Source of the DNA: an uncultured Oscillospiraceae bacterium
GTDB taxonomy: Bacteria; Bacillota; Clostridia; Saccharofermentanales; UBA5734
Direction: 5' to 3'
Length of the DNA: 64,000 bases
NCBI GenBank assembly: GCA_964450865.1
Contig: CAYVHB010000004.1
Location: 40,363 to 104,362, forward strand
This document shows positions 39,632 through 63,587 of this stretch, one piece after another. The notes beneath the pieces are model-generated. The model did no database searches. It saw only the letters and a list, made by a program, of their open reading frames with translations, and was not told the origin of the DNA. The translations under genes were made by a program, and so were the position numbers. The number at the start of each line of letters is the position of its first letter. Within the stretch, counting starts at the first letter, position 1.

Positions 39632-40789
39632 TTGGGGGGCTGGTGCTTGAGTCGACTTTTCCCGGGAAACCATACAACGCTCGAACAGACGCAATTGCTG
39701 TATCAGCGGATCTACCATTGCCCTGACCTCACCCGCCAGGCCCTGGCCGAGCAAATGGACCTGCCGGCGACGACGCTGAATCGCACACTCGATCGCCTGA
39801 TCGCACTGGGGCTGGTCTCGGCAGAATCCCAGGGAGCTTCATCAGGCGGGCGCCGTCCTGATCTGTTCCGGATCATCCCCGGCGCCCGCAGTCTGCTCGG
39901 GATTGAACTCAATGGCGCGGCCAGTCGCCTGGTCCTGACGGATCTTTGTTTGACTCCCATTGGTGACGAATCGCTGGCTGGCTGGCCTGGGTGTGAGCCG
40001 GTCCAACGCATTCCCTGGCTGATCGGGCAAATCAAGTCAGCCTGTCAGAAGTACAAGGTCGGTCTGGAGCAGGTGCTTGGCATTGGCCTGGTTGGTCCGG
40101 ATGTGACGGCGACAGCCACTGAGCCGGACACGAATACGAATCTGGCAGACATCAGTCTGGTGGCTGTGTTACAGCATCATCTGCAGATGCCGGCCTGGGC
40201 GACTGATCCGATCCTGGCTGCGACCTGGGCGGGTATTTTACCCGTTAATTCCACTGTTGATCAACCCATGCAATACTGGTTTATCGACGATGCGATCCTG
40301 CTGGGATCCGTTGAAAAGATTTTTCCGTCTTCCTCCTGGCAGGCCCTGCCAGTCAGTCATCTGCAGGCTGCTGATCCCGCAGGCGGACAGGCTGTTACCC
40401 TGGCGGCAATGACAACTCGCCCTGGCCTGGTCCACCAGTTTCAGCAGCTCAAAAACGACACGGCACTGACCTGGACCGATCTGCTCGCGGCAGCCAGCCA
40501 GGGCAAGAAAAAAGCAACGGTTGTCATGCAACGGGGCCTGCAAAGCCTGGCCATGGCCATCTATAACGCGGCGGTCATCAACCGGACCCGGCAAGTCGTG
40601 CTCGGCGGTCCGCTGGTCAGCGAGTGGCCGTCCTATGGCAGCGCTGTCTGTCAGCAAATCGCGCGAATCAGCCAGGGCAGTGACCAGCCAATAACAGTGA
40701 CGGTCGATACCACAGGCCCCGGTGGTCGCGCGCTGGGCGCGGCGGTCGTGGTGATGGCCCGCAGTCTCGGTCCACAGTCTCACCGGTAA
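39632..40789 (+). CDS. ROK family transcriptional regulator (N-terminal HTH + ROK sugar-kinase-like domain); TTG start proposed
   Basis: HTH LTRQALAEQMDLPATTLNRTLDRLIALGLV, ROK block SSGGRRPDLFRI...LGIELNG aligns to XylR-type ROK repressors; ATG at 39533 would overlap MFS gene by 68 nt whereas TTG 39632 has AGAGG RBS. Confidence 0.65.
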   Translation: MGGWCLSRLFPGNHTTLEQTQLLYQRIYHCPDLTRQALAEQMDLPATTLNRTLDRLIALGLVSAESQGASSGGRRPDLFRIIPGARSLLGIELNGAASRLVLTDLCLTPIGDESLAGWPGCEPVQRIPWLIGQIKSACQKYKVGLEQVLGIGLVGPDVTATATEPDTNTNLADISLVAVLQHHLQMPAWATDPILAATWAGILPVNSTVDQPMQYWFIDDAILLGSVEKIFPSSSWQALPVSHLQAADPAGGQAVTLAAMTTRPGLVHQFQQLKNDTALTWTDLLAAASQGKKKATVVMQRGLQSLAMAIYNAAVINRTRQVVLGGPLVSEWPSYGSAVCQQIARISQGSDQPITVTVDTTGPGGRALGAAVVVMARSLGPQSHR

Positions 40790-41063
40790 GCAAGACCAGG
40801 ACAAGATTGCTGTGCCAACTTGATCCAGCCGTGTTAAAATTAAGCTGTAGCAGTCCCTGCCGTTCGCTGCCTTTCGCTGCCGTTCCGCAAGTTGCTCAGT
40901 TGTTCGCCGCCCTGCCGCAAGTTGCTTTGCCGTCGCCAGCAAGTATCAGCTGTTGTCAGACGCATTTGAGTCTGTTCTCTGGATATCCGGATCCTGCAAT
41001 ACGCTGCAGGCCGATCATTCCAACTGAGAATCAAGATCTGCGCTTTTCGGGGAGGGATGATAC

Positions 41064-44000
41064 ATGGCATCCGAACGCGTAAAACCCGTTAAACCGGCTC
41101 AGCCGGGCCCCGCTTCGCCGACATCCGGCAGTCTATCTGCCGCCACCACAAACACGAACATCAGCCAGCCGGGCCCGGCCACTACTACCGGAAACAAGCC
41201 GGGTAATCAGCCTGCCCCAGCCAGGCCCGGTCGACGTCCTGGCTGGTTGCGAGTTGATAAAAGACTGCTCCGGGCCTTTGGTGCCGGAGCCCTGGCAGCT
41301 ATTCTTGTTTTCAGTATCCTGCTGACAGCGTTGAATCCCGGCTGGCTGGCCGGCACTTTTACCCGCCAGATTGGCAGCCGTACGCTGGCCCAGGAAGTCA
41401 ATCTGCAGCCGGTCACTGCTGCGCCGGCTACCCTGAAAGCAGCGGCCGAGATTGAGCAGACCTTTAACCTGGCCCTGAGCCAGGCTGAAATCAAGTCTAC
41501 CAAAACCGATTATTATCAGCTTGGCGGCTTTTTCCGGGACCTGAAAATCAGTGCCATCAAGCCGGCGGGTGACCAGCTGGCGATAACCATCAAGGGCAAA
41601 ATTGCCGATCCACATGCCTATGGGCCGGATGTCGGCAATCCCGACGGTGAAATCTACGTCATGCCGGAAGCCCTGCAGGACTCGACAGCTGCCTTTGCGG
41701 CCAGGATTACCATTGAATACCCGCAACTCAATCCGCAGACGACCGTTCTGGAGGAAAAGCCGGCTTATAGCGACCAGCTGGTCTTCACCCTGCAGGGTGA
41801 CACGTTCCGCCAGGTACCAACAGCTGCCGATATCACGCTGGGTGGCGGGTTTACCGGCATGACCGTCGCAGCCGTTCGCCAGCAGGAACAGGAGCTGGCC
41901 CTAACCATCACGGGCGGCCTCGATCCCAATGGCGGCAATGGTATTGTCACGCTGGCCGGCACAGCCCTGGGCAGCGCATTTTCTGTTGACCAGGTGATCA
42001 GGATTGCCGGCACAGCCTGCCTCTTCTCTTTTACGCCGCTGACCGTTGAAGAACCCCTGCAGGAAACGCTGCTGGTCGGTATTGATCACGATTCCTTTGC
42101 AACTGACCTGACCGCAGACATGTTCACGCTCGGCGGCGGCCTGGCTGATGCGCGGATTACCGAGGTCCGGCCGACTGACCAGCCCAATGCTGTCTGGCTG
42201 ACCATTCAGGGAGCAGCCTTGCGCCAGCCCGGTTCAGCCAGCCTGCGGGCCGAGGCCCGGGCTGTGACGAGTGGCCGTGCTGTCACCGGCACAATCGACA
42301 TTCGTAATCCGGATATTTACGCTTTCCATGTCATGGACAGCCAGGCCAACCAGGCCACCGATAATCAGGTCTATGATCTTTACACCCTGGGCAATGACTT
42401 TTTGCCATACCTGCAGGCAGGCGACTTCGTCCTCAAGGATGCTCTGTCTTTTTGTAAAATCACAGCGGTAAAATGGCTCAACGGCTATCATGTGCTGCTG
42501 ACAGTGCGTGGTTTGCCCGGCAATGGCGAGGGACGCATCGCAGTCCGTTCGGCCGCGCTCGGGGGGGTGACCGGCGCGGATGCGGTCGTCCAGAAGATCC
42601 GCCAGGCTGATCTCCTGATCGCGGGAACCAGCGACGCAGCCTTGCTGCAGGCGCCACAACCAGCAGACCAGGCAAGCAGCCCGGCCTTGTTGCAGACATC
42701 GTTGCCATCCGGCCTGGCCGGCCTGGACATGGTTCGCTGGCAACAGATCCTGTCCCCGGGCGGGCTGGCCGGCGGGAACTGGGGTAACCAGATGCCGGTA
42801 TCAGGCATCCGGACGTTAACCGCCCCATCCGCGGGACTGCGCGCGGCAGCCAGTCCGCTGCGCCTCAATACCACACCCGCGTCTGAAGCCCAGCTGATGT
42901 GGGGACTGGACCAGCTTATCGACTGGGGTATCGACAAGGTCAAGGGACTGGTTATTGAGGGGATCAAATCAGGCCTGAAAGCCGGTGCGACCAAGGGCCT
43001 GATGTACGGCCTGCGGGAAACCGGACTGCAAGGGCCGGCTGTTGAGGATCTGCTCAAGGAAATCCAGACGTCGCTCGACCAGATCCAGAAACAGCTCGGT
43101 ACCATGCAGAATGTGCTCAGCGAAGCCATCAGCGACACGGAGCTGAATGGCCAGCTGGCTTCGTTACTGGAAGCCCAGACCAAAATCAAACGGGCCTATG
43201 AGATGTATGTATTCCTGCAAAGCCAGATCAAAGATTATGAAGCGGCCAACCCTGGCAAAAAAGCGCTGGATGATCCGGATATCAGGCACGCCAATGAATT
43301 GTTCATGAATGAGATTGCCACGAAGGACATCGAAACGGCGACCCTGCAGATCGCCCAGGCCATGGCCGGCAATTCGCAGGCAACGTCACTGATTACGATT
43401 TATTACAATAACCGCAAGCACAAACTGCCCTTTGAGCACAATGCCGCCGAGAATCTGCGCCAGTTTTACCAGGAAATGCTGATGCTGCAAACTCAGGGGC
43501 TCCTGCTCTATGCCGAATACTGCAATTACAACATGGCCAGCAGCCAGCTGTTTTACAATAACAAGCTGGAAACCATGACCAATACAATCTCGGAAAGCCT
43601 GGACGCCCAGAAAAAGTTCCTGCCACCGGACAGCGTGTTCAAGGTCAAGAACAATCCGCTCAGCGGTGACATCCGGGTCAAGAGCAACTACAGCGGCAAG
43701 TCGTACATCCTGGTCAAGGGGGCCTCTACCATGGCCCAGCTGACATCGGACAAGCAGGCAAAAAGCGGCTTTGTGATCACCTACTATATTCCCGTCAACC
43801 AGAACAAGGACGGCACTAATTCCGACAAGGCCCTGGTCAAGATCCTGCGCGACCGCGGGAATACAGCTGTCAATACAGCCAGTACCGAAAGCGGTGATGC
43901 CCCGACAACCGGGCCATACCGGGAACTGGCCAAAAGTGATATCGCCGACCTGCTTTACTACCATAAGGAAAAGAAACTGGAGACAAATACCATCAATTTC

Positions 44001-44207
44001 TTTGCAAAATATACCGGTGCCGACGGTCTGGTTGATTATCTCTATCTGAAACGCGAGGGCAGCTCAATCTTTGCCCTGCTGGGTCCGCTGGATTATAACT
44101 ACGACATCTACGACATGCGGACTGACAGCTACCGGACTTTCAAAGCCTCGGACCTTTTCAGCAAATACAAGGATTATTATGAGAAAATAATCCTGGCTGT
44201 TCGCTGA
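41064..44207 (+). CDS. Large (1047 aa) membrane-anchored modular surface protein of unknown function
   Basis: RBS GGGAGGGATGA; Pro/Gly/Thr-rich cytoplasmic N-tail, single TM (residues about 69-91), four tandem about 85-aa beta-rich repeats, Pro/Ala linker, about 420-aa C-terminal domain with helical then beta-rich halves and lower GC. Confidence 0.8.
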   Translation: MASERVKPVKPAQPGPASPTSGSLSAATTNTNISQPGPATTTGNKPGNQPAPARPGRRPGWLRVDKRLLRAFGAGALAAILVFSILLTALNPGWLAGTFTRQIGSRTLAQEVNLQPVTAAPATLKAAAEIEQTFNLALSQAEIKSTKTDYYQLGGFFRDLKISAIKPAGDQLAITIKGKIADPHAYGPDVGNPDGEIYVMPEALQDSTAAFAARITIEYPQLNPQTTVLEEKPAYSDQLVFTLQGDTFRQVPTAADITLGGGFTGMTVAAVRQQEQELALTITGGLDPNGGNGIVTLAGTALGSAFSVDQVIRIAGTACLFSFTPLTVEEPLQETLLVGIDHDSFATDLTADMFTLGGGLADARITEVRPTDQPNAVWLTIQGAALRQPGSASLRAEARAVTSGRAVTGTIDIRNPDIYAFHVMDSQANQATDNQVYDLYTLGNDFLPYLQAGDFVLKDALSFCKITAVKWLNGYHVLLTVRGLPGNGEGRIAVRSAALGGVTGADAVVQKIRQADLLIAGTSDAALLQAPQPADQASSPALLQTSLPSGLAGLDMVRWQQILSPGGLAGGNWGNQMPVSGIRTLTAPSAGLRAAASPLRLNTTPASEAQLMWGLDQLIDWGIDKVKGLVIEGIKSGLKAGATKGLMYGLRETGLQGPAVEDLLKEIQTSLDQIQKQLGTMQNVLSEAISDTELNGQLASLLEAQTKIKRAYEMYVFLQSQIKDYEAANPGKKALDDPDIRHANELFMNEIATKDIETATLQIAQAMAGNSQATSLITIYYNNRKHKLPFEHNAAENLRQFYQEMLMLQTQGLLLYAEYCNYNMASSQLFYNNKLETMTNTISESLDAQKKFLPPDSVFKVKNNPLSGDIRVKSNYSGKSYILVKGASTMAQLTSDKQAKSGFVITYYIPVNQNKDGTNSDKALVKILRDRGNTAVNTASTESGDAPTTGPYRELAKSDIADLLYYHKEKKLETNTINFFAKYTGADGLVDYLYLKREGSSIFALLGPLDYNYDIYDMRTDSYRTFKASDLFSKYKDYYEKIILAVR

Positions 44208-44226: not shown

Positions 44227-45234
44227 TCAGTCAAACGCCGCCGGGTGCATCGCCAGGTCAGCCGGCGGCATATGCTGCGCCAGGTCGATGACCTGCCAGT
44301 CACCCGGCTCCCTGGCGATCAGGATCGAGCCGCTGAAAGCGGGTTCATTGCAGCGCAGCCAGGTCGCGAAACGCTGATAAAAGCGGGTAAAACCATGGGC
44401 GTGCATGGGCAGGACCCAGCGCGGCTGTAAGCGCCGTACCGCATCCCGGGCTCCATGCAGCAATTGCGCTTCCTGGAAACCGTCACTGGTGCTGACTGGT
44501 ATGAAAGCCAGGTCAACGGGCCAGGCCAGGCCCTGCAGGATCTGCAGGGCCTTTTCGTGTTGCTCGCGATAAGCGGGTGTATCGGCCCAGACGGCGAGAT
44601 CGCCGCCAAAGTAGATTGTCAATTCCGGCAGGCGCAACAGAAAGGCTACACCCTGGTCCGTCGAAAAGGTCGTCGCAATCGTTAGCTCGAGCTGGCTGTC
44701 CGGTGAAGCGAGGCATTGCCCCGGCCGCATGTAAAGCAGCCCTGGCCGGGCTGGAATGGGCACCGGTTCATCAAGGTCGAGACCCAGCCAGCTATACAGA
44801 ACCGGCCCGGCCAGCGGAGCAGGTTGCACAGTGAGCGATGAAGGTCTCACTTCGCCTGCATCGTTCGTGGTCCCATCGCCCAGGCCACCGGACAATACCG
44901 ATTCAGGCTGTAAAACTGCCTCGCGCAAGGCTGCTTGCCAGGCTGGATTGTCGTGGTCTGTGTGGCGATGGGATGCAAAGGTCAGGATCGGCCGCGGTTG
45001 TGGCGGGAGTGACAGATTGATGGGCAGTCGCAAAGGCTGGCTGGCCAGGGCTACGAGTTCTGGCGGATCCAGCCGGCCATTTACAGCCAGGCCACTCCCA
45101 GTCTGCTGAGTCAGGTCTGGCCGGGCTGGGCGGCTGCCATAGTCGAAAACAAGCACATGCCGGCTGGTTTCGACCAGCCAGGCACTGTGCCCCAGGTATC
45201 GGATCTGTACGAACTGATGGCAGGCAGCTGACAT
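44227..45234 (-). CDS. MBL-fold metallo-hydrolase
   Basis: HRHTDHDNP (HxHxDH) and MHAHGF motifs; start MSAACHQ after RBS AGGAGG. Confidence 0.75.
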   Translation of the reverse strand: MSAACHQFVQIRYLGHSAWLVETSRHVLVFDYGSRPARPDLTQQTGSGLAVNGRLDPPELVALASQPLRLPINLSLPPQPRPILTFASHRHTDHDNPAWQAALREAVLQPESVLSGGLGDGTTNDAGEVRPSSLTVQPAPLAGPVLYSWLGLDLDEPVPIPARPGLLYMRPGQCLASPDSQLELTIATTFSTDQGVAFLLRLPELTIYFGGDLAVWADTPAYREQHEKALQILQGLAWPVDLAFIPVSTSDGFQEAQLLHGARDAVRRLQPRWVLPMHAHGFTRFYQRFATWLRCNEPAFSGSILIAREPGDWQVIDLAQHMPPADLAMHPAAFD

Positions 45235-58991: not shown

Positions 58992-61900
58992 TTAGCCACC
59001 ATCAATGATAAAGACACGGCGGCGCCGGATATGCCAGATCAACCGCTGCACGACAGGCTGCAGTACAGCCGCCTCAATCGCCTGGGCATAAAAATCAAGC
59101 TGACGACTATAGCGGGCAGCAAGAACCTGCTGACAGGTCGCATCATCGCCTTCAATCCAGTCAGACTTATAATCTACCAGGATGATTCCTTGCGGACTGC
59201 AAAACCAGCAGTCAATGATGCCCTGCACCAGGACTTGGTCTTCTGCAGCAAAACCGTCTGCCAGATTGTAAACATCCTGCACGGGCAAGGCCAGGGTAAA
59301 AGGAATTTCCCGGTACAAGCCCTGCGGCTGATTCCGGGCAGCAGCCATGCCCGCAGCCAGGTCTGAGCGGGCAAAAGCGGTCAGATCCGCCAGATGGAAC
59401 TGCAGGACAGTTGCTTCCTCCTGTGAAAAAACTGCAGCCTGGACCATTTCGTCAAGCTGGCGACGTATTTCGCCTGCGTCCGGATGATGAACGGCCGCCG
59501 GCAGATCAAGCTGGCGCAAAAAGCGATGGAGCAGGCTGCCGAGGGCTGGCCCCTGATGCAGATCGGGTTTGCCGCCGGCCATTGACTCCCGCAGATTGTG
59601 CAAGGTCAGATTAATCCCCCGCAATTGAACGGTCCGGGACGCCTGGGCTGGCTGGAGTGGCTGGTCCGCTTGAGCCGTTGCTGTCCGGGACGCCTGGGCT
59701 GGCTGGTCCGCTTGTGACAATGCCGGTTGCGACGGTTTTCCCGGCTTAGCCGGGGCTGGCTGCGGGATAGACAGGGTGATTGCCTGATCCTCGCCAAATT
59801 GATTTTCAGCTTGTTCGCGCCGTTTAAATTCACTGACAGCCAGCTTGACCGGCAGCCGGGCCGCCGGGTCATAGCGATAGGCGGCAAATAAATTCTGCCA
59901 GATCCCATCAACGGATTCTGGTGCGATCGTCTGGCCGGCCGCCAGCAACGTATCCAGCGCCTGCCCGGGAGAAAGGGAATTATCAACATGGCTTGTCCGG
60001 TCCAAGACCGGCTGATAGGCCATAACCGGCTGGCCAGTCTGGTCCAGCACCTCGCCCGACAACGGAGAAACTGATGAGATCTGGCCAGATTCAGATGCTG
60101 ATTGTTCACCTTCGTCCTGAGGGCCAAGATAATCGGCAACCGAACACAGATTCAGGCGCCACATACCCTGCGAGGGTGCCGGCAACTGATAACCCGCCAC
60201 CAGATCGGGTGCCACCGCTGACCAGTTGAATGCCGGATGGCGGGCTAAAGCCAGAGCAATCCATTCCAGGTAGCTGCGACAGCCAAGAATCCGGTGCGCC
60301 GGCAACTTCAGTCCAGGATAACGGCGGGCTTGCTCAAGCAAGCGGGCCAGGCGGGGCAGGCCCTTGACCGGGTTGATTTTCAGGGCTGCACTGATGAACA
60401 GCTGGTCTTTGGCCCGGGTCATGGCGACATACAGAAGACGCATTTCCTCAGCCTGCGAAGCGGCCCGGGTTTCCTCGAGCATGGCAAATTTCAGGTGCGT
60501 CGGATAACGCAGACGCCGGTCGGGATCAATCCAGTCGAAGCCAACACCGAGCTTCTCGCTGACCAGGAATGGATCCCGGCGGGCCCGCGGCGCAATATTG
60601 CTATGGGTACCAACCAGGAAAACGACCGGGAATTCGAGGCCCTTGCTGCGATGGATGGTCATCACCCGGATGGCGCTGCTGTTCTCTTTCTCCAGCCCGA
60701 AAGGCGAAGTCTGCACATTGCGTTCGCGCAACCGTTCGATATAGCGCACAAAGCTGAACAGGCCAAGCCGGCGATGCAGCTCATACTGGCTGGCCCATTC
60801 CTGGAATTGCCGCAACTCGCGAATTTTGGCCGCCCCGTTGGGCGAAGCGGCAACCTGGCTGAGATAACCGGTTTCTTCAAACAACAGATCGAGCCATTCG
60901 CTGACCCGCAAGGTCTGCTCACGATCGCGCCAATGTTCCAGCCAGGCGAGGAATGACCGGACTTGCGCCCGCAGCTGATCATCGGGACCATTTTCGGCAT
61001 AGGCCCAGACTGCTTCATGGAAGTGGCGGATCTGGTAAGCGGCGGCTGCCGTGACTGGTGAGGGCTCCCCATCTGTCTCACTTTCATCATCAGGAGAAAT
61101 TCCATCTTGCACCGGCCAGTCTGGCGATTGTGCTGTCTGTATCTGTCCGGCCTGCATCTGCCCGGCTTGTGCCAGTTCCTGGCGGGCCTGGCGTTCGGCC
61201 TGACGGTCTGCCAGACGGATCCTGTACAGAGCGTCAGCCGGGAAACCGCCATTGCAGAGCGGCGAACGCATCACGGCGGCCAGGGGAATATCCTGGCGCG
61301 GATTATCCATCACCATCAGCAGTGCTTCCATCAATTTCAGCTCCGGACTGTCGAGGAAGCCCCCACTGCTGTCTTCGAGGACAGCAATTGCCGCATTCGC
61401 CAGCGCATCACTGAACACGCGGCCGACGGCCCGTGAACGGCTGAGTATGACAATATCCCCGGGCTTGCGGCCGGCAGCCAGCAGTTCACGGATGCGGGCG
61501 ATGACCACCAGGGCTTCACGCTGGTATTGATTCAGTTCGCTGGCAGACAGCAGCCAGCCAGCTTCCAGACTGTCCGTTTCAGGCACGGATGTGCCGGCCA
61601 TGCCGGCAGACATCTCATTTTCCGGCTCAGCCACTGTCCCTTCATCGGACTCAGCCGATGCTGGACGGTCGGCTGGCATCCCTTCACCGGCATCGTCCCG
61701 GGCGGTATCGCCCTGAACCAGATCACCCTGAACCTCATCAGCCAGGGCCCTGTCAACCGCACCATCTGCCGGGTTCAAGCCGGATTCATCCATGGCAGGC
61801 AAGCTGGTATCGACCAGCAGCAATTCCACCGGCACGATCGCCGCCTCGTCAGCGCGGAAAGGAACCAGCGCCTGGTCCTGGTCGTAATCAATTTCACCAG

Positions 61901-63587
61901 CCTGTGGTGACATCAGCTGATAGAAGATCTCATTGACCGCGCCCAGGATCCCGGCCACGCTGCGGAAATTCTGGTTCAAGGCATATAGCTTGCCACGATC
62001 CGGATCACTGAACAAGGCGCATTTAGCCATGAAAATCTGCGGCCGGGCATGGCGGAAGCGGTAAATGCTCTGCTTGACGTCACCAACCATGAAAATATTG
62101 TCCTGCCCGATGGCCTGCAGCAAGGACTCCTGGATACTGCTCGTATCCTGGTATTCATCGATGTAGATCTCCCTGAAGCGCTGACGGTAATAGACACCCG
62201 CTTCCGGCTGGCGCAGGATATGCAGGGCCAGATGCTCGAAGTCACTGAAATCGATCAGGCCCTGCTCACGCTTGAGCGCCTGGTAATGCGGATCGAGGTC
62301 CAGCACCAGGTCAAACAGCTGCCGGATGGCCGGGAGCATGGCGCCAATATCGGCAGCGATGGCTGCCGCCGGCCGGGCAAACCAGTAATGCGTGTCAAAG
62401 ATGAATTCCGCCTGATATTTGGCTGCACCCAGCTTGCCGGTCAGGCAATAAACAGCTTCGGCCACCTCACGGCGGAAAATCTCCAGAAACAGCTGCTTGG
62501 CCGGCGCATCGGTTTTTCTGCCCTGGGGCATCTTCAGGTCGGATATAGAACGGGCCAGCTCGCGGATTGTATCCCAGACACAGGCCTTGCCCTCCGGGAC
62601 TTCAGGCTGGCTGCCTGGCCCGCTGGCCGCTGCATGCAGGACTGCCTGGATCTGGCTCAGTACCGCCAGCACGGCGCGCATCTGGGCGTGAATCTCCCGG
62701 TTGCGTTTCGCCTGCTGGACAAAGGGAACACCCTGGTCGAGCAGATCCAGTAGTTCCGGGGAAGCGGCGCAGGCCCGGTCCAGCAGCAGACCGGCCTGCT
62801 TGCACAGTACGCCGGCCTGGCGACTGGCGGCAAAATCAGCGGCCGTAGCCGTCAGGTCCTGCCAGTAATCTTCAATCCGGGCCAGATAATCCGGCATACT
62901 GCGCAAGAAATAGAAAAAGCGCAAGATCAGCTCACGCAGCGGCTCATCGCTGCGGCTGTTGCCGAAGCTGTCAACCAGACGAAAAAAATCAGCGGTCCAG
63001 GCCGGTAATTGATCAGCCGCCAGGTCGATCTGTTCATATCGCCTGGCCAGCTCGGCATCGAGGGCCTGGCGGCAGAGCAGATCAGCCTCGATGCCATCAT
63101 CAACGGCAAAGCCGGGCTCCACGAGTGGACTGCCGTCCGGCCCGATAGCCAGATGGCTGAAATTGCGGATCACGGTCAGGCAGAAAGCATGGATCGTTGA
63201 AATTGAAGATCCTGGCAGCAAGCGCAGCTGGCGGGTCAGGTAATGGCGCAGCCGGGCTTCCGTGGTCGCCGTCCGGGCAGCCTCCAGCTTGCGCTGGATC
63301 TTTTCCCGCATCTGGCTGGCCGCCGCTTCCGTAAATGTCATCACCAGCACCTGATTGATTTCCAGCTCCTGATTGACAATCCGGCTGACGATCCGGTCGG
63401 TCATGACGGCCGTCTTGCCCGAGCCGGCTGCAGCGGAAACCAGCAGGTTGCCGACCGGCGCGGCAATGATCGCTTGCTGGGCCGGGGTAGGCGCGAAACG
63501 GGGTGCCGCTGTTTCCAGCCCAGGATCAGCTGGCGTTGCCGGCCGACGATCCTCATCCTTCCTGTTCATGGGTGACTCCTCTAACAT
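58992..63587 (-). CDS. addA: ATP-dependent helicase/nuclease subunit A (UvrD-like helicase + C-terminal PD-(D/E)xK nuclease), unusually long (1531 aa)
   Basis: N-terminal UvrD motif I AAAGSGKT, motif II FMVGDVKQSIYRFR, helicase C-domain, C-terminal nuclease GIIDCWFCSPQGIILVDYKSD; large low-complexity insertions; addB immediately upstream. Confidence 0.85.
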   Translation of the reverse strand: MLEESPMNRKDEDRRPATPADPGLETAAPRFAPTPAQQAIIAAPVGNLLVSAAAGSGKTAVMTDRIVSRIVNQELEINQVLVMTFTEAAASQMREKIQRKLEAARTATTEARLRHYLTRQLRLLPGSSISTIHAFCLTVIRNFSHLAIGPDGSPLVEPGFAVDDGIEADLLCRQALDAELARRYEQIDLAADQLPAWTADFFRLVDSFGNSRSDEPLRELILRFFYFLRSMPDYLARIEDYWQDLTATAADFAASRQAGVLCKQAGLLLDRACAASPELLDLLDQGVPFVQQAKRNREIHAQMRAVLAVLSQIQAVLHAAASGPGSQPEVPEGKACVWDTIRELARSISDLKMPQGRKTDAPAKQLFLEIFRREVAEAVYCLTGKLGAAKYQAEFIFDTHYWFARPAAAIAADIGAMLPAIRQLFDLVLDLDPHYQALKREQGLIDFSDFEHLALHILRQPEAGVYYRQRFREIYIDEYQDTSSIQESLLQAIGQDNIFMVGDVKQSIYRFRHARPQIFMAKCALFSDPDRGKLYALNQNFRSVAGILGAVNEIFYQLMSPQAGEIDYDQDQALVPFRADEAAIVPVELLLVDTSLPAMDESGLNPADGAVDRALADEVQGDLVQGDTARDDAGEGMPADRPASAESDEGTVAEPENEMSAGMAGTSVPETDSLEAGWLLSASELNQYQREALVVIARIRELLAAGRKPGDIVILSRSRAVGRVFSDALANAAIAVLEDSSGGFLDSPELKLMEALLMVMDNPRQDIPLAAVMRSPLCNGGFPADALYRIRLADRQAERQARQELAQAGQMQAGQIQTAQSPDWPVQDGISPDDESETDGEPSPVTAAAAYQIRHFHEAVWAYAENGPDDQLRAQVRSFLAWLEHWRDREQTLRVSEWLDLLFEETGYLSQVAASPNGAAKIRELRQFQEWASQYELHRRLGLFSFVRYIERLRERNVQTSPFGLEKENSSAIRVMTIHRSKGLEFPVVFLVGTHSNIAPRARRDPFLVSEKLGVGFDWIDPDRRLRYPTHLKFAMLEETRAASQAEEMRLLYVAMTRAKDQLFISAALKINPVKGLPRLARLLEQARRYPGLKLPAHRILGCRSYLEWIALALARHPAFNWSAVAPDLVAGYQLPAPSQGMWRLNLCSVADYLGPQDEGEQSASESGQISSVSPLSGEVLDQTGQPVMAYQPVLDRTSHVDNSLSPGQALDTLLAAGQTIAPESVDGIWQNLFAAYRYDPAARLPVKLAVSEFKRREQAENQFGEDQAITLSIPQPAPAKPGKPSQPALSQADQPAQASRTATAQADQPLQPAQASRTVQLRGINLTLHNLRESMAGGKPDLHQGPALGSLLHRFLRQLDLPAAVHHPDAGEIRRQLDEMVQAAVFSQEEATVLQFHLADLTAFARSDLAAGMAAARNQPQGLYREIPFTLALPVQDVYNLADGFAAEDQVLVQGIIDCWFCSPQGIILVDYKSDWIEGDDATCQQVLAARYSRQLDFYAQAIEAAVLQPVVQRLIWHIRRRRVFIIDGG

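Follow-up and report, generated by a model that had tools for sequence, protein, structure and literature searches.

The product of pbpE in Bacillus subtilis, PBP4*, is a member of the PF00144 family. PrsW is the site-1 protease of the B. subtilis anti-sigma factor RsiW, and the sigma-W regulon of this species includes pbpE (PMC3498285). For Bacillus thuringiensis, a published report places beta-lactam resistance under the control of a sigma factor of the extracytoplasmic function (ECF) class (PMC8844934). Here we describe a large gene (41064..44207) in a 64,000-nt stretch of DNA from an uncultured Oscillospiraceae bacterium (contig CAYVHB010000004.1), hereafter called the window, whose relatives in other genomes are accompanied by genes of this kind. 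The predicted product is a 1047-aa surface protein with an N-terminal membrane anchor, four tandem repeats, a linker and a C-terminal domain, to which we refer as the C-domain or head. Like the sigma-W/RsiW/PrsW system of B. subtilis and the sigma-P/RsiP system of B. thuringiensis, which controls beta-lactamases, the cassette found in relatives combines PrsW (PF13367) with an ECF sigma factor and an anti-sigma factor of the single-pass type, and, as in sigma-W/PrsW modules, where pbpE belongs to the sigma-W regulon, a penicillin-binding/beta-lactamase-family (PF00144) gene lies downstream. In contrast to known ECF/PrsW modules, the sensor of the anti-sigma factor is a phage-tail Collar domain and a surface protein of ~1000 aa is a fixed member; a limited literature search found neither a precedent for such a member nor a description of a Collar-domain anti-sigma/PrsW cassette. 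The copy in the window further differs from ECF/PrsW modules in having no cassette around it.

The cassette was seen most completely in three loci (L003, L007 and L016), where the large gene is directly preceded, on its upstream side, by genes for a polytopic membrane protein (230-260 aa), PrsW, an ECF sigma factor and a single-pass protein that has a phage-tail Collar domain at its C-terminus. The Collar-domain protein is taken to be the anti-sigma factor. In L006 the membrane protein and PrsW are encoded upstream and an anti-sigma-like gene downstream, and an anti-sigma factor is also present in L015. The downstream side is visible in nine distinct relatives, and in eight of them (L001, L003/L004/L013, which represent one relative, L005, L007, L008, L015, L016 and L017) a PF00144 gene lies directly downstream of the large gene and on the same strand, with a spacing that ranges from a 4-nt overlap to a 29-nt gap. 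These PF00144 partners are orthologous and share 45-59% identity; all have SxxK, YSN is present wherever the sequence is complete, and a lipobox was found in six of the eight. Their resemblance in NCBIfam is to class C beta-lactamases, AmpH and D-aminopeptidases, with scores well under the family cutoffs. Distant homologues of the C-domain do not have PF00144, PrsW or ECF neighbours, so that the pairing tracks the full-length architecture and not the head. The arrangement in relatives has the logic of an envelope-stress regulon. In L001, the locus of the homologue P0002, the next gene after the PF00144 gene belongs to PF03417 (AAT, acyl-CoA:6-aminopenicillanic-acid acyltransferase/peptidase C45; 9846-11087). 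This family assignment points to a further beta-lactam- or peptide-related neighbour, and a MalT-like regulator stands upstream in place of the ECF set.

The large protein also resembles the co-encoded anti-sigma factor in its transmembrane (TM) helix and the juxtamembrane segment that follows it. The shared form is F-x-A-G-x-x-A-A-x-x-L ... A-(V/I)-N-P-G-F-L-x-G-T-F-T-x-Q-x-G, and the family consensus after the TM helix is (N/Y)P(G/E/S)FLxGTFTxQxG, with the core NPGFLxGT. In L007 the anti-sigma factor has SFMAGMAAMLMLVVGITSAVNPGLLTGTVASQ and the large protein GFVAGFLAAVILITGTLAAVNPGFLAGTFTKQ, and the window protein carries LNPGWLAGTFTRQIG at aa 90-104. The two segments co-vary within loci: in L016 the anti-sigma factor reads NPEFLKGT where the large protein reads YPEFLKGT, and in L006 PSGFLxGT occurs in the anti-sigma-like protein as well as in the large one. 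Smith-Waterman scores between large-protein and anti-sigma segments were 54-99 (54-65 for the window protein), apart from one cross-locus pair at 36, compared to 21 +/- 4 for shuffled sequences and to averages of 22-25 (maximum 33-51) for unrelated TM segments of membrane proteins encoded in the window. The motif is intact in all five cassette-linked members compared to two of five members without a visible cassette (the window protein and P0009); in the other three it is degenerate (P0012) or replaced (P0002 and P0013). This segment is what the large protein has in common with the anti-sigma factor. Unlike membrane anti-sigma factors that are substrates of regulated intramembrane proteolysis, for example RsiW, the large protein has no sigma-binding domain; none was found in the window protein with Pfam or NCBIfam, and its likeness to the anti-sigma factor is limited to the TM and juxtamembrane segment. 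The N-terminal tails that precede the TM helix are of low complexity and are not conserved.

The layout of the window protein, one long open reading frame (ORF) with a Pro/Gly/Thr-type tail, one TM helix, four repeats and a linker, is as a previous interpretation made from the letters alone (the sequence-only reading) had described it, as a membrane-anchored modular protein. The tail (aa 1-68) has a net positive charge, with 10 Lys and Arg compared to 2 Asp and Glu. The predicted topology, with a cytoplasmic tail (N-in), one TM anchor and the remainder outside the membrane, is shown by the positive-inside rule together with the signal-peptide-like or lipobox N-termini of relatives. The four repeats are 96-105 aa each, longer than the ~85 aa first estimated, and are weakly yet consistently similar to one another (pairwise E 5e-5 to 3e-2) around the common skeleton F/I-T-L-G-G-G ... 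L-x-L-T-I-x-G. The sequence-only reading had put them forward as possible beta-sandwich/Ig-like modules. A search of PDB sequences with a profile of 33 repeat units and a Pfam search gave no match that would identify them; they are presumably beta-rich and would form a stalk. The linker (aa 517-610; Ala 17%, Leu 16%, Gly 11%, Ser 11%, Pro 10%) exceeds that of most relatives in length. A protein identical to that of the window is present in the public collection (P0001; NCBI and Logan), with three near-identical variants in the same 90% cluster. We judge the gene to be genuine and native because it has a Shine-Dalgarno sequence, GC content at third codon positions (GC3) and a codon index like those of the host, and near-identical alleles whose substitutions are scattered over both halves.

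The family to which this protein belongs is very small. A word-indexed search gave the window protein, its three near-identical alleles and one homologue, P0002 (937 aa), which is 42% identical to the window protein over the repeats (BLASTP) and 34% in an alignment of the C-domain, and which has a signal-peptide-like N-terminus. Word-indexed searches that used alignments yielded next to nothing. The family was revealed by an exhaustive HMMER search with a C-domain profile against 1.84 billion representative proteins, in which only 26 proteins scored at E <= 1e-3 and 12 at E <= 1e-10. A scan of genome contigs added a 967-aa homologue on two near-identical contigs (L003 and L004), and a scan of metagenome contigs found L003 and L001 again and nothing else. 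L003 is NZ_QFFZ01000050.1, labelled 'Pelotomaculum propionicicum MGP', and L004 is DCTG01000158.1, labelled 'Clostridiales bacterium UBA1446'; their ORFs are almost identical, L013 matches L003 at 100% identity across 11.7 kb, and one of the two assemblies, L003 or L004, probably contains a contaminating or mis-binned contig.

Seven full-length relatives (P0007 and P0009-P0014) have the order tail, TM helix, four repeats and C-domain, as in the window, and P0006 and P0008 are N-terminally truncated forms of the same layout. Identity in a 12-sequence family alignment is 27-38%. Among full-length relatives the C-domain is never swapped or missing, and it is homologous to the last residue. An N-in TM anchor is found in the window protein, L003, P0007 and P0009-P0012, and a lipobox in P0021 and P0030. 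In the branch P0012-P0014 a further ~150 aa are inserted between repeat 4 and the head (aa ~500-650; e.g. GRVNLSDYIEGMTISFCDKNGNALDIPFAATDENGSF...); the window protein does not have this insert, and a segment of P0021 (aa ~340-560) resembles it. The weaker matches P0020-P0031 are true homologues of the C-domain, with P-F-x-H-(N/Q), L-Y-x-E-Y-C-N-Y, conserved tyrosines and a small-residue lead-in that ends in a conserved Gly. They place the domain on other scaffolds: a lipoprotein signal with BspA-type leucine-rich repeats (LRR_5); a protein whose Transglut_core match is weak and falls below threshold; a signal peptide in combination with a Cys-rich segment that follows the C-domain, to which P0022 adds a C-terminal TM helix; and a lipoprotein signal with similar repeats. 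The head is thus an ancient, autonomous extracellular module rather than a recent import into the window gene. In this evolutionary sense the sequence-only reading was right to speak of a module, since the domain also occurs behind BspA-type repeats, a transglutaminase core or a bare lipoprotein signal.

Sequence comparison indicates that the head, of ~440 aa and two lobes, belongs to a previously undescribed family. Searches of Pfam, NCBIfam and PHROGs with the whole protein and with its halves gave only noise (DHC_N2, DUF2452, HpnN and Tsi2, E 0.04-0.4), and searches of PDB sequences, whether with the protein alone, with a C-domain profile of 13 sequences or with the 33-unit repeat profile, gave only coiled-coil noise. 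An AlphaFold prediction from a 2-sequence alignment had a predicted local distance difference test score (pLDDT) of 41 and was discarded. The model used here was built from a 17-sequence alignment (AF2 model m0bd1b1a056b8, aa 606-1047) and has a pLDDT of 73.3 and a predicted template modelling score of 0.72. It contains long, confident helices at C-domain residues 87-247 (pLDDT 85-95 for residues 90-250), in a helical lobe with helices of 28-37 residues and a small helical sub-domain, followed by a mixed alpha/beta lobe with two disordered loops (residues 254-442). The first ~85 residues are helical and of low confidence. Foldseek searches of the model against PDB and BFVD gave nothing at E < 1e-3, and the alpha/beta lobe had no match in these fold searches. 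The expectation that the first half would be helical and that the domain would fit no family was thus borne out, through the absence of Pfam, NCBIfam, PHROG and PDB-sequence matches and of a significant fold match. The second half, described as beta-like and rich in K, N, Y and T, proved to be mixed alpha/beta and rich in K, D, S and Y.

Conserved residues of the head include two motifs and a set of aromatic positions. Across 24 homologues the PFEHN motif retains P in 22, F in 24 and H in 21, and the lone Cys820 in LYAEYCNY is present in 23. A catalytic pair of His792 and Cys820 was considered and rejected: both residues are replaced in P0015, the His is replaced in P0029 and P0031, and the two stand at opposite ends of one long helix in the model.

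Together, these results lead us to propose that the window gene is native, has been inherited vertically and belongs to a very rare, unnamed surface-protein family of Clostridia-like anaerobes, with an undescribed head and a role linked to the cassette; as a whole, we give this explanation an even chance of being correct. In such a protein the four ~100-aa modules would act as a stalk and a flexible linker would present the two-lobed head of ~440 aa distally. The large protein and the PF00144 hydrolase would both be outputs of the ECF system. From the TM/juxtamembrane segment that the large protein and the anti-sigma factor have in common, we infer that both would be recognised by one machinery in the membrane, for which the PrsW site-1 protease is the likeliest candidate. 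The ectodomain would be processed or shed when the system fires, and the head, as a module that binds or is membrane-active, would work with the PF00144 hydrolase at the surface of the wall or outside it.

Several observations weigh against this proposal. Searches with all partners (tblastn) found the PF00144 partner, PrsW, the ECF sigma factor and the Collar anti-sigma factor nowhere in the window, so that the link to the cassette is borrowed from relatives of only 27-38% identity. The association of the intact motif with the cassette is suggestive and not significant (Fisher one-sided p = 0.08), and inspection by eye of the regions upstream of the large genes gave nothing convincing as a common ECF-type promoter. 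The homologues of the head have no invariant polar constellation that would point to a catalytic site, and Foldseek found no significant structural neighbour for it in PDB and BFVD. Cleavage of the large protein by PrsW is purely our inference from the shared segment. A bolder version of the proposal would see in the family the effector arm of an ECF-sigma/PrsW cassette for envelope defence that is itself undescribed. The large protein would then be a second PrsW substrate whose ectodomain is shed under stress, releasing a membrane-active or ligand-sequestering head of new fold that works with the PF00144 hydrolase, the window copy having been rewired to a ROK/MarR regulator; this version we consider decidedly improbable.

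The copy in the window is a solo gene behind a ROK/MarR regulator and retains the juxtamembrane motif. The intergenic region between the two genes contains direct repeats (40860-40930), with CCGCAAGTTGCT at 40885-40896 and 40915-40926 and TTCGCTGCC twice around 40862-40881. These repeats may be operator sites for the adjacent regulator.

This setting and the layout of the protein also suit an adhesin or ligand-binding surface protein, whose Tyr-rich head would bind a polysaccharide, a wall polymer or a partner cell and which would have no link to stress signalling here. An anchor in the membrane or wall, ~100-aa tandem repeats, a linker of low complexity and a head at the distal end make up a layout typical of Gram-positive modular adhesins. 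The residues conserved across the 24 homologues of the head are mostly aromatic (Y712, Y715, Y780, Y819, Y907 and W/Y992), the head also occurs behind BspA-type LRR binding modules, and the window copy adjoins the ROK/MarR regulator, which is of sugar type, and transporters. Unlike Gram-positive adhesins, however, the protein is anchored by an N-terminal TM helix, and neither an LPxTG-like motif (motif scan) nor any recognised domain for anchoring or binding, such as SLH, CWB2 or LysM (Pfam), was found in its 1047 aa; its repeats and head are of no described family. No carbohydrate-binding or adhesin domain was recognised with Pfam and NCBIfam, the fold searches matched no lectin or carbohydrate-binding module, and adhesion leaves the PF00144 pairing in eight of nine distinct relatives unexplained. 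We regard an adhesin without a signalling link as rather unlikely.

The helical lobe and the segment that leads into it raise the question of whether the head is membrane-active or pore-forming, with its helical bundle and a glycine-zipper helix inserting into the membrane of competitors, or into the cell's own stressed membrane, after release of the ectodomain. The lead-in (aa 611-660) is amphipathic and rich in small residues, has four to five consecutive GxxxG spacings (KGLVIEGIKSGLKAGATKGLMYGL) and ends in a conserved Gly. Its hydrophobic moment is 0.48, the equivalent segment of two distant homologues has TM-like hydropathy (1.6-1.7), and its low pLDDT would suit a conformationally mobile element. 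In the window protein, however, the maximum 19-residue Kyte-Doolittle value of the lead-in is 0.62 and there is no buried hydrophobic hairpin. Pore-forming toxins were noticeable among the long Foldseek alignments, with scores as for any long helical bundle, and, judged from the model, the toxin idea would rest only on this generic similarity. No Pfam toxin family and no significant fold match supports membership of the Vip3, Cry, ClyA-Hbl-Nhe or XaxAB groups. The head differs from the helical domains of Vip3, alpha-latrotoxin and three-domain Cry proteins in having no sequence or Pfam relationship to them, in domain order and membrane anchoring, and in an alpha/beta lobe that matches nothing. 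As in polymorphic toxin systems (LXG/Rhs/CdiA-type), the protein of the relatives is large and exported, its C-terminal domain is distinct, and the gene directly downstream is conserved. Unlike in those systems, the C-domain is constant among full-length relatives, and the downstream gene encodes a serine hydrolase of 350 aa, which in most loci is a lipoprotein, and no small immunity protein; no conserved gene of the small immunity type adjoins the large gene. A pore-forming head is, in our view, unlikely.

Control of wall hydrolases by helical domains, as in EnvC and PcsB, is well established, and the head could in this way regulate or scaffold the PF00144 hydrolase, the window copy then being a remnant without its partner. 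The large gene and the PF00144 gene are adjacent in all paired loci, with the close spacing given above, and conservation is higher for the partner, at 45-59% identity, than for the large protein, at 27-38%. Against this, distant homologues of the C-domain have no PF00144 neighbour, the pairing following the full-length architecture, and the window gene is intact, codon-adapted and conserved between strains even though no partner is nearby. Such a scaffold function for the head seems very unlikely.

The sequence-only reading had further regarded the C-domain as compositionally foreign and as a horizontally exchanged module, with ~50% GC compared to ~62% elsewhere. The fall is real but less steep than that, and the value given for the remainder was too high: the C-domain has a GC of 0.517-0.521, compared to 0.607 for the N-terminal part and 0.572 for the whole window. 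The C-domain lies at the 4th percentile among windows of the same size, and lower stretches (0.49) exist in the window. The fall is limited to codon positions 1 and 2. GC at position 1 (GC1) is 0.527 in the C-domain, 0.646 in the N-terminal part and 0.619 +/- 0.059 in the window genes, and the corresponding values at position 2 (GC2) are 0.342, 0.511 and 0.441 +/- 0.045. GC3, in contrast, is 0.695, 0.668 and 0.666 +/- 0.046, and an index resembling the codon adaptation index is 0.739, 0.643 and 0.666 +/- 0.056. A windowed calculation thus shows the GC drop, and no synonymous discontinuity was found. Since GC falls only at GC1 and GC2 and GC3 is host-like, the C-domain is unusual in its amino acids and not in its synonymous codons; its low GC stems from the residues used (K, N, Y, I, E and D). 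The genes of eight relatives, from loci with a GC of 0.355-0.55, repeat the pattern, with a C-domain 3-7 points under the N-terminal part and GC3 within 0.01-0.09. The offset is an intrinsic property of the domain and no mark of foreign origin. No copies of the C-domain were found by tblastn in plasmid and phage collections, and no integrase or transposase was annotated by Pfam among the called neighbours in the window. That the C-domain is a foreign toxin or ligand-binding module, acquired horizontally and fused to a resident surface protein, would suit its low GC (0.52 compared to 0.61, and the 4th percentile) and its presence on other scaffolds over deep evolutionary time, but is made extremely improbable by third positions and a codon index at or above the window mean, by the same offset with equal GC3 in the eight loci, by the presence of the same C-domain, homologous to its last residue, in every full-length relative, and by the negative plasmid, phage and mobile-element searches; the shared offset and the host-like synonymous codons refute a recent transfer. 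For genome scanning, the lesson is that a 9-point GC drop within a gene can be a pure amino-acid effect, and that GC3 and codon adaptation need to be checked before horizontal transfer is invoked.

Table 1. Features of the large gene, its neighbours and the cassette of relatives. Positions are those of the window unless a locus is named.
Feature	Position	Strand	Basis
Complete ORF, 1047 aa + stop codon	41064..44207	+	ORF calling
Shine-Dalgarno GGAGGG, 8 nt before ATG	41050..41055	+	sequence reading
Sigma-70-like promoter candidate GTGCCA-17-TAAAAT, TG extension	40812..40840	+	consensus scan of the 274-nt upstream intergenic region
Predicted cytoplasmic N-terminal tail, aa 1-68, Pro/Ala/Gly/Thr-rich	41064..41267	+	composition
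Single TM helix LRAFGAGALAAILVFSILLTAL, aa 69-90	41268..41333	+	translation; conserved family-wide
Conserved juxtamembrane motif NPGWLAGTFTRQIG, aa 91-104	41334..41375	+	family alignment
Repeat 1, aa 118-222	41415..41729	+	repeat comparison
Repeat 2, aa 223-322	41730..42029	+	repeat comparison
Repeat 3, aa 323-418	42030..42317	+	repeat comparison
Repeat 4, aa 419-516	42318..42611	+	repeat comparison
Low-complexity Ala/Leu/Gly/Ser/Pro linker, aa 517-610	42612..42893	+	composition; relatives' alignment
C-domain lead-in, aa 611-660	42894..43043	+	low-confidence model; homologue comparison
C-domain helical lobe, aa 611-852	42894..43619	+	AlphaFold model
Motif PFEHN, aa 789-793	43428..43442	+	homologue alignment
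Motif LYAEYCNY, aa 815-822	43506..43529	+	homologue alignment
C-domain alpha/beta lobe, aa 853-1047, K/D/S/Y-rich	43620..44204	+	model and composition
MarR_2 + ROK-family regulator, 385 aa as called, upstream neighbour	39632..40789	+	Pfam
MBL-fold (Lactamase_B_3) hydrolase, convergent downstream neighbour; unrelated to the relatives' PF00144 partner	44227..45234	-	Pfam
DUF4153-like polytopic membrane protein, 600 aa	45368..47170	-	24.1 bits, below Pfam cutoff 27
Cassette order: membrane protein, PrsW, ECF sigma, Collar anti-sigma-like, large surface protein, PF00144	L003:5510-13890; L007:4272-11165; L016:809-8067		

The flanking genes are those that the sequence-only reading had named, a ROK regulator, a convergent MBL-fold gene and a DUF4153 protein, the last with a score that falls short of the Pfam cutoff (Table 1). 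The scan for sigma-70-like promoters upstream of the large gene gave one site compared to 1.8 expected by chance, and the candidate at 40812..40840, taken alone, is weak evidence. ORFs antisense to the gene and within it (e.g. 42488..43189 and 43386..43964 on the minus strand) were rejected as candidate genes and are taken to be by-products of high GC3. Elsewhere in the window, an FMN riboswitch (RF00050, 24364-24501 on the minus strand, 102.9 bits) is the sole Rfam match. A second very long ORF (58992-63587 on the minus strand, 1531 aa) encodes an ordinary UvrD/AddA-type helicase-nuclease (UvrD-helicase, UvrD_C and AAA_19) and no surface protein.

If the fold and activity of the head are truly new, it would define a new extracellular module of anaerobic Firmicutes, carried in these bacteria on scaffolds that include a TM-anchored stalk, BspA-type LRRs, a transglutaminase-like core and a lipoprotein signal. 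The cassette found in relatives combines a large surface protein and a hydrolase resembling penicillin-binding proteins with a PrsW/ECF sigma switch, and would exemplify the regulated proteolysis of an output protein besides the anti-sigma factor.

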